The notes beneath the pieces are model-generated. The model was given only the letters and a program-made list of their open reading frames with translations, made no database searches and was not told the DNA's origin. Shown one piece after another: positions 4,737 to 8,762 of a stretch of 64,000 bases of DNA. A program made the position numbers and the translations under genes. The stretch is taken from contig CAWIEK010000002.1 of the NCBI GenBank assembly GCA_963835065.1, forward strand, positions 128,001-192,000, given 5' to 3'. Every line of letters begins with the position of its first letter. Within the stretch, counting starts at the first letter, position 1. Origin of the DNA: an uncultured Chthonomonadaceae bacterium. GTDB taxonomy: Bacteria > Armatimonadota > Chthonomonadetes > Chthonomonadales > Chthonomonadaceae.

Positions 4737-7700
4737 CTATCCTACAAACAGCCGCGCCACCGCATCCCGCAGCGGATCGGTTTCCTGCGCAAGGGCGGCG
4801 CGGGCGAAGATTAGGCCGGGATTGGGGGCGCGCATGGCGCGGGACAGGACGCCGTAGCCGGTGTGCGCCTGCTCCGCGAACATCTCTTTTTGGATCGAAA
4901 CCCATTGCGTTATGCCCCGCGCCATGCCTTCGCGCGAACCGATGCAGTTCATCAGGAACTCCGGGGGCGTCAGTCCTTCGCGGTAGCCATGCCGAATGGT
5001 GTAGGTACTTCCATTCAGCGCGGCTACGACGCCCTGCGCGGCGACGGCTTTGAGCAGCAGTCTCATGCCGCCCCGCGCTCCACTGGCAAGCGTCAGCAGT
5101 ACGGGGTCGGACAGCGATTCCGGCTGCCGCATCCGTTCGGCAATGCGGGCCGCGAATTCTTCCAGCCAGGCGTTCCATTCCTCGGGCGCGTCACGGATTG
5201 GGCGAACCGGGGCGGGCCAATTTCTGCCCAAAAACGGCCCGTATCCCCCGCCGATGTGCCGCGCCGCTTCAAAGCCGCGCAGCGTCAGGCGGTGCAGAAT
5301 GTCCAGAACGGGTTCCACAGCCGCATGGCCTTCCTTCAGCAGTCGTTGGCGCAAAGGCTCTTCCAATACGCCCCGCGCTAAAAGGCCGTTTTGAAGCGAC
5401 AAAGGCTGTTCCAGGATGTGTTCGATTTCAGCGCGTCCGGTGGGCGTTCGCGCTAAAAAGGCCAGTCCCAGGCGGGAGTCATGCAAAGGACGGAGGACAT
5501 TCAGGGTTTCCACATCCCGCCGCAAATGCCCGGCAATCGTAAGTTTTTCGCCTGCTTCCATTTGCGCCGCTTCCGTGATAGGCAGAAACACGCTGACCGT
5601 ATCCCCGTCAAAATCCAATTCCATCAGGCTGCATGTAAACGGATGTACTTGAATGGTTTGACCGGAAACGCGAACCGGATGGAAGGCCACAATGCCAGTT
5701 GGCGTGATTGTCGGGGCGCGGTTGAGCAATACCCACGAACGCGCCATGATGCGGTCCAAAACCTGCGCGGCGGCCTCACTGTGGGCTTGTACGGCTTCCA
5801 CGCTTCCCATTTCGCGCGCGACTAGCGGCGCGAACAGCGTCCACGCGATTTCTTCCGGCAACCCCACTTGTTCATAGGATAAGCCCGCGCCAATCGTCGC
5901 CACCGCCCGCCCGCTGAACTGCGTCCGCGCGCCGAACTCCAGATGATCCGGCGTGAGCAAAACCGCAAAGAAGGCTTGCAGGCGCGTTTGCATATCCGTT
6001 CGCGCCTTTAACAGCAGGCTGTCGGGGGCTTGCCCGTCCAGCATCCGCGCCAATCGCCCGCTTGCTTCCGCCAGTTCGCCATATTCGGGCAGTTCCACAA
6101 ACGCGCCGATTGCGGACAGCGTAATTTCCGGGTTCCAGGGGTGCGGCGCAGATTCCGCCAGGCGCAAGATTTCTCCTTCAGGTTCCTCGTTCCCTTCAGG
6201 TTTCTCGGCAAACTTTTCACTCGCTCCCTTATTCACGCCTTCGCCGGCCTCTTCAGCCGCTGCTTTATTGGCCTCTTCAGCCGCTGCTTTATTGGCCTCT
6301 GCATCGGTCTTTTCACTTGGTTTAGAAGCTGTCTGCGCCAGCCGAAACGTCAGCCCGTGTTCGGAAAAGTCGCTGACAATGCCGCCAACCGCCAGCCGAC
6401 GCGCTACATCCGCCCATTGCGGCGAGGGTGGCGTGGATTGCGCAACCGGGCCGGCAATCAGCCGTTCCGCCAGCAGGGGCGCGTCCACACGCGCGGCAGC
6501 CCGCGTGTTGAACGTTTCGCGGATGTTTTCCGTCGCGTCTGCGATGCCCAGGGCGTGGAACTCCGCCTGCCCAATGCCGCGAACAGTGCGCGGGCGTTGC
6601 CGTCGCGTGGATTTTGTCACTCGCAAGGTGGTGCAGCCTGCCCCAATACACCCACCCCACCGTACTCGGCACGGACATGGGCGGGCCGTGCCGGTTGACA
6701 CTCAGCATCCTCATGCCATCCGGCGGCAGTCCCGCAGCCACAATACGCGCTTGCAGTTCCTCATCTTTGGGCGCAGCGAACGGCGGCACGATAACGGGCA
6801 GCCCCTCCTGTTTCGCCACACAACTCAGGACGGCTTCCCGTATCTGTCCGAGTACCATGCGGCTGTGCAGGCTCATCGGGCTAAAAACCAATTCTACGGG
6901 CGTCCGCCGCTCACCGCCGCGTTTCTTCATTTCGCCTTGCTTCGTGTCGCCTTGTTGCGCTTCGCCTTGTTGCGTTTCCTCATCCTCGCCTTCGGCTGTA
7001 TCCGTTTCGAGGCTTTCGCCTGCATCCGTTTCTATCAGATGCGGCATTTCGTCGTCCGGCACGATACGCGCAATCACGCCCTTGCTGCCGTGCCGATTGC
7101 TCAATTTGTCGCCGGGCTGCACGGCAAATGGATAATTCAGCCGCGCCGCGCACGATTGGCTGATGAGAATACCGTCCTCAAACGTGTCCAATCCCCCGGA
7201 AACATACGCCGTCAGCAGATTGCGCCCGCACCAGAATTCCGGCGCGTCGGGCGGTTCGCTGCCGGTTTGTATCAGCGCCGGTTCCGGGTCGGGCGGCGTT
7301 ATCCATTGCCGGAGCATGTTGACTCCCATCACCAAGCGGCACGGATCATCGTGTTCCAAAAACGGGATCATGCGCGCGTTCGCGCCCAAATTTCCAAGCG
7401 GGCTGTCGTCCACAACGATCAATTTGCCGTCGCGTATCGCCGCGCCCGTCGCCACCACCAGAATACGCCCGATGTTCGGACCCTCCGGCGTTTCCAGCGG
7501 ACACGCGCGCCCAAAGTGTCCCGGCGTAAACATGCGCGGCTTTTCCGGCACGGCGATGCGGCGCAACTGCGTTTGCCGCTCCAGCCACCGAACCTCGGTT
7601 TCCCAGGACATCCGGGGAAATGCCTGCCCGCGCAGTCGAACAAACTCCCCAATCCATGTTTCCAGCGGCAGCCAGGCGCGCAGTAAATTCTCATTCCATT

Positions 7701-8175
7701 CTAATTCTGTCGGCGCTTCGCCCAACCGCGTTGCGCAAAAGGCCATCAGCAGGTCGCCCACGCACTGAATGTCCGCCGTGTCCAGTTCATCCGAGGAAGC
7801 CAGGGGCAGCACGGTATACTCCCGCCCTCCAATCGTAAACACGCCCTGCGCATCCGGCTGCGGCACATCCGCAAACGTCACGTTCAGCGTTTCCGCCCCC
7901 ACGCCGATTCCCACCGTGACGCGGCAGGCATACGCCCCCGCGCTTTCCACCTGATAATGGACCAGCGGCAGCCGACTGACCAGCAACTGCGGCAGCCCCT
8001 CGCGCAAAAACCGGTCAAAACTGGCCCGATGCCAGGGAGTAGAATACAACGATGAGTGATGAGTGATGAATGATGAATCAGAATCCAATTCATCATTCAT
8101 CATTCCGCGTTCAGCATTTCCTTCTGTTCCCTGTTCCCTGTTCCCTGTTCCCTGCTTCTCCTCTTCTTCTCTCAT
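4737..8175 (-). CDS. Miniature fused RpoB-RpoC (beta-beta') RNA-polymerase-like protein, about 1145 aa after removing one extra base near 6577
   Basis: Collinear beta motifs (HFGRACPLETPEGPNIG, IPFLEHDD, FEDGILIS, GDKLSNRHGSKG, SRMVLGQ, LHHLASDKIHA, GQAEFHAL) followed by beta' motifs (FSGRAV, LLNRAPT, DFDGD at 5601-5615, SGARG, YREGLT). Joins ORF-track entries 6322..8598 and 4737..6701. ATG at 8175 overlaps the sigma stop codon. Confidence 0.9.
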
Positions 8176-8762
8176 TCCTCTTCTCCTTGTTCCGCATTCC
8201 AGCAGCGGCTGAGATGCTTGCGGGCGTGGTACAGGCGGGACTTGACCGTGCCTTCGGGGATGTCGAGCAGGCCGGCAACGTCGCGCAGTTCCAGGTCTTC
8301 CTCGTAGACCAGGCGCAGCACGTCGCGCTTTTGATCGGGCAGTTCGTTGAGCAGGCGGTGGAGACGGGAAGTGGTGTCGGATCGCAGGGCGCATTGTTCC
8401 GGCGTGGATGTGGACGTATCGAGCATCCACATTGGCGCGAAAAGCGCATCGCCATCCTCTTCCGGCTCTCCCGATTGCAGGGATTGTTCGCGCCGACGCT
8501 TGCGGTTGCGCAGGTCGTTGAGGGCGAGATTGGAAGCCGCGCGGAACAGCCACGCCTTGACGGAACCGCGCCCTTCCCATTGCTCCGCCCGCGTCCACAC
8601 GCGCAGCAGCGTTTCCTGAAGCAAGTCTTCAGCCACCTCCGGCTGACGCGCTATGCCGACAAGGTAACGCCGCAACGCCTCCCGATAGCGAGCGGCCAAC
8701 ATTTCAAATGCTTCCGCATCCCGCGCCGCGATTTTTGTCAGCAACTCCTCGTCTGAAAGCAT
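8172..8762 (-). CDS. ECF (sigma-70 group 4) RNA polymerase sigma factor
   Basis: SDEELL, AEDLLQETLLRVW (sigma2), LPDQKRDVLRL..IPEGTVKSRLYHAR (sigma4); ATG at 8762 follows AAGGAA. Confidence 0.93.
   Translation of the reverse strand: MLSDEELLTKIAARDAEAFEMLAARYREALRRYLVGIARQPEVAEDLLQETLLRVWTRAEQWEGRGSVKAWLFRAASNLALNDLRNRKRRREQSLQSGEPEEDGDALFAPMWMLDTSTSTPEQCALRSDTTSRLHRLLNELPDQKRDVLRLVYEEDLELRDVAGLLDIPEGTVKSRLYHARKHLSRCWNAEQGEEE

Follow-up and report, generated by a model that had tools for sequence, protein, structure and literature searches.

A candidate transcription cassette of uncultured bacteria: an ECF sigma factor beside a one-chain, pruned beta-beta' RNA polymerase core

A two-gene cassette is described here from an uncultured bacterium of the Chthonomonadaceae (Armatimonadota), where it lies on the minus strand of a 64,000-nucleotide (nt) stretch of contig CAWIEK010000002.1 (assembly GCA_963835065.1, positions 128,001 to 192,000), called the window below. 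The first gene encodes a sigma factor of the extracytoplasmic function (ECF) class; the second, whose start codon overlaps the stop codon of the first, encodes a miniature RNA polymerase (RNAP), a single chain in which a beta part is fused to a beta' part (Table 1). By Pfam, the neighbours are a divergent HlyD-type efflux gene upstream and a DUF4126 gene downstream; the overlap of the two codons and the lack of an adjacent anti-sigma gene, both remarked in a first-pass annotation of the window, are borne out. Normal rpoB and rpoC genes are present in the same genome, on contig C48.

Table 1. The cassette and associated features, by position in the window
Feature	Position	Strand	Basis or residues
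ECF (group 4) sigma, 196 amino acids (aa), of the clade found beside mini-polymerases	8172..8762	-	Pfam Sigma70_r2 and r4_2 only; family profile
ATGA overlap of sigma stop (TGA, 8174-8172) and polymerase start (ATG, 8175-8173)	8172..8175	-	sequence
Beta-like half: protrusion remnant, fork, catalytic barrel; lobe, flap and switch-3 segment deleted	6578..8175	-	Asp 7176, Lys 7107 and 7083, Arg 6861, His 6630
Beta C-terminal helices fused to beta'-like half spanning E. coli beta' 16-1354, with large deletions	4737..6577	-	model and superposition
In-frame heptamer repeats, non-conserved N-terminal tail	8051..8158	-	repeat comparison; residues 1-32 of a homologue model of low confidence
Acidic low-complexity insertion, lineage-specific, of 24-nt repeats, near the beta/beta' junction	6200..6330	-	homologue alignment, repeats, model
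Clamp coiled-coil (docking site of sigma region 2 in normal RNAP), rudder removed after it	5967..6083	-	aligns to host RpoC 409-447; model helices 165-182 and 187-208
Catalytic DFDGD (Asp at 5615, 5609, 5603)	5601..5615	-	kept in 105, 107 and 107 of 107 members; 63, 63 and 62 of 65 distant members
Bridge helix	4872..4967	-	host RpoC 917-958 (hhalign 93%); model helix 539-570
Predicted -35 element TGAAC	8901..8905	-	gapped word counts (43 dereplicated regions), matrix
Predicted -10 element GGTGTC, 15 nt from -35	8880..8885	-	gapped word counts, matrix, strict motif
Predicted transcription start (T at -1, purine at +1)	8870..8871	-	sequence alignment of sites
Extra base splitting the fused gene	6575..6577	-	frame against homologue P0005; X1 and X4 contigs; host rpoB pieces; ABC permease
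Inverted heptamer-repeat arrays just past the stop codon	4611..4738	.	arms of 31 nt, 94% complementary

Mini-polymerases of this kind form a family. With the beta' half as query, 99 proteins were found at E 1e-30 (8,000 candidates scored), mostly of 1,000-1,070 aa and with both Rpb2 and Rpb1 domains; a profile search found 177 relatives in a species-level genome set and 204 in metagenomes, from which the best 80 of each were taken for analysis of their loci; and 65 near-full-length representatives (940-1,110 aa) at 50% identity came from an exhaustive search. The relatives come from six or more phyla (Poribacteria, Latescibacterota, Chloroflexota, Planctomycetota, Armatimonadota and Hydrogenedentota), and several lie on complete chromosomes (complete metagenome-assembled genomes). 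Presence is patchy: 5 of 41 close relatives and 11 of 151 genomes of the phylum carry the gene, and G001, a genome of the same genus that is 97% complete, yielded neither sigma nor mini-polymerase with these queries. No member was found in the sets of viral contigs, plasmids and PADLOC that were searched. No published description of the cassette was found in the literature searched, which excludes most subscription papers and bioRxiv supplements, and its absence from print is not proven.

The chain has a median length of 1,026 aa, against 1,398 + 1,579 for the RpoB and RpoC of the host lineage (about 2,980 together). In profile alignments to solved and host-lineage subunits the beta part is collinear with normal beta but pruned: an N-terminal strand block; the fork region, reached by skipping the lobe and having a shorter loop; the catalytic barrel, from which the flap is missing; a switch-3 segment shorter by 15 residues; the C-terminal helices. 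After a short junction there follow the clamp helices, no rudder, the DFDGD barrel, shortened rim helices and the bridge helix. AlphaFold2 models (homologue P0005: predicted local distance difference test 88, predicted template modelling score 0.83; beta' half of the source copy: 89 and 0.83) were obtained, and superposition matches beta chains with Z 28-30 over 430-500 residues at 2.3-3.1 A, and E. coli beta' residues 16-1354 (8fvr_G) with Z 25.8 over 489 residues at 2.9 A. For the last 47 residues and the junction strand, sequence alone gave no signal of beta' homology beyond that of shuffled controls, so that there the homology rests on the structural range 16-1354. The top NCBIfam models are rpoB (143 bits, cut-off 801) and rpoC (131 bits, cut-off 963), both far under their curated cut-offs; the best structural matches are cellular subunits, and a viral fold library returned large viral RNAP subunits, at 8-18% identity. 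In the beta segments that we take to be alpha contacts, the hydrophobic and glycine residues are kept; the charged ones are not all kept.

Two deletions were traced through the family. Conservation was scored in 107 members (995-1,074 aa) with less than 80% identity, drawn from 154 full-length sequences. In the source copy FED (7182-7174) and GDK (7113-7105) are separated by 20 residues, as the first-pass annotation had seen; its figure of about 250 for RpoB is not general, the spacing being lineage-dependent (183 residues in six of seven RpoBs of the source order, about 150 in 8i23_C, about 260 in 7xya_C; the 350 of the seventh RpoB is probably a mis-hit of the pattern). The loss of the flap stands: host RpoB 850-1000, the flap region, is covered by none of the 107 members, and no flap with its flap-tip helix was found there. 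The second deletion had been overlooked. Only about 45 residues follow the bridge helix, against about 620 in host RpoC; host RpoC beyond about residue 1000 is matched by none of the 107; Pfam Rpb1_5, present in host RpoC, is missing from all three members scanned. No trigger loop was found in these comparisons. The source copy has additions of its own: translated heptamer repeats of a sort spread through the genome, not polymerase sequence, make up the 45 residues that follow the overlapping ATG, the repeats having entered the frame in the source lineage, and a contig of sequencing run X3 lacks one 24-nt unit of the acidic insertion.

Also overlooked was that the polymerase, taken to be one open reading frame, occupies two in this assembly: the beta-like half spans 8175 to about 6578, the beta'-like one about 6577 to 4737, in different frames, the shift lying at about 6577-6593 relative to the closest intact homologue (P0005). 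The three closest homologues have an uninterrupted single frame. At 6577 one base is absent from a contig of run X1 (depth 2.4), and at 6575 one is absent from a contig of run X4, which is more distant; the other listed pieces of the X1 contig are 97-100% identical, and it may come from the source sample rather than stand as an independent witness. A contig of run X3 (depth 2.8) covers the same place, with no gap there in the alignment table. Host rpoB lies in seven pieces, with six frame changes relative to the RpoB of the same genus, and host rpoC has one, near its end (G000:C48:60936-65271, L201); the assembly is therefore prone to insertions and deletions, and other split genes of this genome are doubtful as well. 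An ABC permease gene that follows the HlyD-type gene, 4 kb off (11047-12300, plus strand), changes frame near 12140-12170, its usual C-terminus being in the other frame. As short-read contigs lack the base and the assembly is indel-prone, the extra base is probably an assembly error; the source strain may instead carry a recent, true pseudogene. A programmed frameshift was ruled out, as close homologues read through and the six split loci among 80 break elsewhere.

The split raises the question whether the whole family might be decaying rpoBC duplicates or artefacts of assembly, given that 6 of the 80 genome loci have a split mini-polymerase like the source copy. Each of these is broken at a different place, however; 107 non-redundant full-length members exist; short-read contigs do without the extra base; and dN/dS is well under 1 (0.12, 0.20 and 0.25 for three segments of the polymerase and 0.20 for the sigma, measured against the copy of G002, locus L052, an Armatimonadota relative in the source genus). 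For the family this account is already contradicted, and it is hardly credible.

The residues of the active centre are among the most conserved; residue numbers are those of E. coli, which we take to be equivalent. In beta', D460 is kept in 105 of the 107 members, D462 and D464 in all, R425 and P427 in 101 each; in beta, K1065 and E565 are kept in all, Q688 in 105, H1237 and R1106 in 103 each, D814 in 101, K1073 in 99 and R678 in 98. Both barrels of the two-barrel (double-psi) polymerase superfamily, as defined in PMC7824862, can be recognized: one with the DxDxD triad, the other with two lysines (107 and 99 of 107; Pfam Rpb2_6). The ribose-selecting position varies within the family. At L039:5986-9051 the first catalytic Asp is replaced by Asn, a change seen in 2 of the 107.

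One of the two mechanisms offered by the first-pass annotation, that the mini-core is a non-catalytic mimic of core acting as an anti-sigma factor, has to be weighed against this pattern. The gene does occupy the position usual for an anti-sigma gene, in a self-contained cassette with no other conserved candidate for that part, and its product has lost the trigger loop. Yet the Asp, Lys, His and hybrid-binding Arg are kept in 98-107 of the 107 members and in 55-64 of the 65 more distant representatives, as if the catalytic site could not be dispensed with; a decoy would presumably need a short clamp segment, not a two-barrel core of 1,000 residues; and the best-known sigma-binding residues are the very ones that have changed. 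With a near-invariant active centre far from the sigma docking site, a pure decoy is unlikely, and the core-mimic mechanism as a whole is given little credence.

The docking site itself is the clamp coiled-coil, which the first-pass annotation had located correctly, as translation and alignment to host RpoC confirm; the match it claimed is incomplete. With host RpoC as the ruler for E. coli beta' numbers, positions 276 (106 of 107), 278 (Arg or Lys, 103), 281 (95), 288 (107), 291 (104) and 299 (105) are kept, and three are changed: 275 is Ala in 89 members, 295 is Ala in 94, and 302 is Arg in 56 and Ala in 18. Neither Arg at 275 nor Glu at 295 is among the common residues, so that the canonical set R275/E295/A302 is not found; the source copy carries A, A and R there. 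Substitutions at these three positions impair formation of the sigma70 holoenzyme (PMC8321222). With the helices kept and these positions replaced, the docking site is, to judge by the alignment, present but reshaped. Prediction of a sigma-mini-core complex (locus L018; sigma 5-203, core 3-795; 46-row alignments; controls not folded) scored 0.45, 0.26 and 0.23 against a mark of 0.32, which is no evidence either way.

The partner is an ECF sigma by the usual marks: regions 2 and 4 only, about 200 aa, and TIGR02937 above its cut-off. It reached no equivalog cut-off among the 25 NCBIfam models listed, and term searches of the part of the ECF group supplement at hand (PMC7826278) gave no Rpb1 or Rpb2 context. 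The family profile scores the cassette sigma at 261 bits and the other ECFs of the genome at 129 or less. The sigma retains the core-binding Asp, Gln and Glu usual in such factors as well as the recognition helix of region 4; it looks capable of working with the host core, and it adds private Trp and Lys residues. Private Trp residues are found in region 2 of 38 of 38 paired sigmas (0 of 34 other ECFs), in the linker of 34 of 38 (3 of 34) and in the C-terminal tail of 33 of 38 (2 of 34).

The gene-neighbourhood survey proposed in the first-pass annotation finds the pairing maintained, and homologues unlinked to ECF sigmas are not the rule. A contig end cuts 5 of the 80 genome loci. Among the 75 left, an intact sigma gene stands just upstream on the same strand in 69, a cut or split one in 5 (in one case 0.9 kb off) and none in 1, which makes 74 of 75 if cut and split sigmas are counted. 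Among assessable metagenome loci, 55 of 68 have a sigma less than 900 nt upstream; some loci occur in both sets. An ATG overlaps the sigma stop in 25 of the 69, gaps of up to 263 nt being found in the remainder. In the 151-genome sample of the phylum, the sigma was detected at E 1e-55 in six genomes, always beside the polymerase, and in no genome without it; of the other five polymerase genomes four carry a more divergent sigma at the same place and the fifth is cut, hence 10 of 10 assessable. In a tree with 36 other ECFs, all 38 paired sigmas fall together in a single clade; sigma and polymerase distances are correlated (Mantel r 0.75), and the polymerase tree reproduces 8 of the 11 supported splits among the sigmas.

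The cassette seems to have no third member. Among 42 dereplicated loci no neighbour cluster, anti-sigma or other, occurs in more than 8, and no alpha gene is conserved nearby; no sigma-polymerase fusion protein was found at E 1e-35 among 8,000 longer candidates (a weak search) or in the best 150 representatives. A divergent gene of about 320 aa, some 140-320 nt upstream of the sigma in Poribacteria (L021-L037; 21 loci, 8 of the 42 dereplicated), is probably synteny among kin. Variant arrangements occur. A further gene, of about 380 aa (L189:1073-2215), in one locus separates the sigma from the mini-polymerase, behind the same upstream motif (see below). A near-identical metagenome group (L129-L132, L134-L136, L147 and L161) has lost sigma and motif, and of the sigma only the last codons remain, overlying the start of the polymerase; two of these loci, L130 and L134, have a nucleotidyltransferase-like gene pair upstream, a piece of which is repeated at the junction.

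One way to understand the pairing is that the sigma, acting through the host core, does no more than turn the gene on, and that the mini-core is a two-barrel enzyme that works without sigma, for example in synthesis of primers or short oligonucleotides, or in addition or trimming at RNA 3' ends. The usual core-binding residues of the sigma, the replacement of three sigma-binding residues in the clamp, the loss of the anchors for region 4, and the existence of copies without sigma would all be expected on this account; so would the variable ribose-selecting position, as deletion of the trigger loop lowers the ribo/deoxy selectivity of normal RNAP (PMC2889878). It does less well with the retention of a clamp coiled-coil bearing exposed arginines when two thirds of the enzyme have been deleted, and with a pairing that persists across phyla with largely matching trees; ordinary targets of an ECF would presumably impose no single sigma clade with private conserved residues. 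Such an enzyme is considered unlikely.

The search for an upstream motif, also proposed in the first-pass annotation, found one. By gapped word counts, GAAC-N17-TGTC is present in 39 of the 43 dereplicated regions before the cassette; the strict form TGAAC-N15-GGTGTC, at 8905-8880 in the window, precedes 54 of 70 genome loci and 42 of 47 held-out metagenome loci and is absent from all 1,186 control windows. TGAAC and GTGTC persist in three divergent cassettes. A conserved bipartite promoter with a fixed spacer before its own gene is what an ECF sigma should have, and at the level of sequence this one does, its recognition being predicted. In G011 (locus L033), another Chthonomonadaceae relative, sigma and mini-polymerase are on different contigs, each with the motif (L033:5146-5172; L205:1439-1464). 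A purine stands 10 nt past the -10 element in 37 of 37 sites, with T before it in 32 of 37, whether the leader is short or long, whereas the GAGG that follows varies with the length of the leader (19 of 24 against 3 of 13); the fixed purine suggests a transcription start at 8870. With the shared motif, the linkage, the single sigma clade and the lack of an anti-sigma, the earlier proposal of a two-gene module is strongly supported. A wider regulon was not apparent: the strict pattern in five genomes gave 17 matches, 4 of them the cassette's own site, against 10 for the reversed control, and a matrix scan of the source genome gave 21 sites scoring at least 14, against 11-23 at wrong spacers, with the cassette site alone at 22 or above.

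A second perspective, the other mechanism of the first-pass annotation, supposes a fully orthogonal RNA polymerase, in which sigma and mini-core make messenger RNA (mRNA) processively from the conserved promoter and the linker or tail of the sigma, or some other element, stands in for trigger loop and flap. The near-invariant active centre, the start-site signature of the promoter and the sigma-specific Trp residues of region 2, linker and C-terminal tail speak for it, as does the ECF linker of mycobacterial sigma H, which enters the active-site cleft (PMC6411747). An orthogonal holoenzyme is possible; the case for it as a maker of mRNA suffers from the loss of trigger loop, flap and rudder and from the ordinary core-binding residues of the sigma. 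Lobe and jaw are gone too, and no regulon is seen beyond the cassette. In normal RNAP, deletion of the trigger loop slows nucleotide addition 12,000-62,500-fold with substrate binding intact (PMC2889878); by our arithmetic on those rates a 4-kb operon would not be made in useful time. With flap, lobe, rudder and trigger loop gone, processive synthesis of mRNA is doubtful, and we regard the orthogonal polymerase as rather improbable.

A mixture of the two mechanisms, in which the mini-core is a catalytically competent partner of the sigma that also titrates it, fits best, and better than either alone. The reading favoured here, tentatively and with full conviction withheld, is that the cassette joins a dedicated ECF sigma to a one-chain, pruned beta-beta' core, which would together form a private, slow and non-processive initiation complex, the core titrating the sigma as well. 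It follows from the division between what was kept (the chemistry of the active centre and the docking helices) and what was discarded (the parts for speed, processivity and region-4 anchoring). That is, the sigma would read TGAAC-N15-GGTGTC, most simply with the host core, and turn the cassette on; the mini-core would bind sigma region 2 through its reshaped clamp helices, the housekeeping sigma being disfavoured; with Mg-binding and RNA-end residues intact, and no trigger loop, flap, rudder or downstream jaw, the complex might open the promoter and add nucleotides slowly, without escape to stable elongation; and capture by the mini-core would keep the sigma from the host polymerase. As no other target promoter was seen, the output could be a short RNA or a self-limiting sigma switch. 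That many uncultured bacteria possess a two-component holoenzyme of about 1,220 residues, without alpha, flap or trigger loop, with its own promoter and blind to the housekeeping sigma, is a bolder claim, and a doubtful one.

Several points weigh against private initiation with titration. Among the 68 metagenome loci, 13 have no adjacent sigma: 8, near-identical, keep only its last codons and no motif; of the others, 2 have the motif directly upstream, 2 have a sigma 0.9-1.2 kb away and 1 has neither. The sigma clade has a support of only 0.76; related loci are not independent, and kinship inflates the agreement of the two trees. Conservation is looser on the nucleotide-entry side (N458 position 77 of 107, R731 position 83 of 107), and the source copy has Glu (at N458) and Ser at two otherwise conserved Asn positions. 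NusG binds the same clamp helices; conservation of the clamp need not mean sigma. Nor is there an obvious use for a circuit that, as far as can be seen, targets only itself. What the sequences show is a fused chain, its deletions, an active centre that hardly varies, the linkage to a sigma, one sigma clade and a promoter-like motif ahead of each gene; activity, expression and product of the cassette are predictions from these. Finally, region 4 of mycobacterial sigma H is anchored on the flap tip and the C-terminal helix of beta (PMC6411747); the mini-core has neither anchor, although -35 element and fixed spacer are conserved, a combination for which the host core alone could account.

Comparison with known systems sets the family apart from each. 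The core of an ECF holoenzyme (Mycobacterium tuberculosis sigma H-RNAP, 5zx3 and 6jcx) is like it in collinear homology and fold from the beta N-terminus to beta' 1354, in both barrels, catalytic residues, clamp helices and bridge helix, in the sigma regions 2 and 4 and in an ECF-type promoter with fixed spacer. The differences are that the cassette has one chain of about 1,020 aa in place of two totalling about 2,980; that lobe, flap, switch-3 segment, rudder, jaw and trigger loop are absent, with no room for a zinc-binding domain; and that the mini-polymerase is accessory, patchy and coexists with normal rpoBC. Second polymerase-subunit genes beside the normal one are known as the rpoB paralogues of actinomycetes (PMC5431353); those are described as forming a second version of the normal enzyme, whereas here the gene is pruned, fused to beta' and provided with its own sigma. 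The RNAPs of phages and mobile elements like YonO and NCgl1702 likewise carry the two barrels on a single chain and have no flap insert (PMC7824862); the mini-polymerase is instead a trimmed bacterial beta-beta', collinear with RpoB and RpoC, chromosomal in complete metagenome-assembled genomes, with clamp helices and a sigma partner. Full-length RpoB-RpoC fusions (PRK09603, PRK14844) likewise join the beta C-terminus to the beta' N-terminus in one chain, but are of about 2,850 aa, complete, and the only polymerase of the cell; against those models the mini-polymerase scores 63-88 bits, under cut-offs of 4,632-5,372. With ECF anti-sigma factors it shares a gene position directly after the sigma, often overlapping; unlike them it is a polymerase homologue of 1,000 aa with an intact active centre, and Pfam finds in it no anti-sigma domain or membrane segment. 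The family falls outside the canonical core (by flap, trigger loop and length), the full-length RpoBC fusions and the YonO-type enzymes.

In the usual teaching, a bacterium has a single RNA polymerase core, of which trigger loop and flap are universal parts. A one-chain core with those parts missing and the active centre intact, tied to one sigma clade and one motif across six or more phyla, amounts to a natural deletion experiment. It makes testable what the minimal two-barrel core is, whether useful catalysis is possible without a trigger loop, whether a sigma can hold a fixed spacer without a flap, and whether alpha is needed. If the mini-core transcribes, the cassette (two genes, 3.7 kb) would be a compact, ready orthogonal transcription system with a minimal sigma-using polymerase; should its role stop at initiation or at titration of the sigma, that would be a new mode of ECF sigma control.

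The surroundings of the cassette offer some minor observations. Arrays of 7-8-nt repeats, often in inverted pairs, lie between genes and in gene ends (4611-4738, 8051-8158, 8908-8969 and 9098-9211, with dozens genome-wide); the arrays at 4611-4738 are a possible terminator-like hairpin. A small gene pair (12431-13164, plus strand) and an antitoxin-like helix-turn-helix gene (13183-13611, minus strand) have, in the list of open reading frames, the look of toxin-antitoxin genes. A gene for a DHH-family phosphatase lies at 19170-20504, 11 kb from the cassette, and a similar gene stands 1.2 kb upstream of the mini-polymerase in L121:441-1793.

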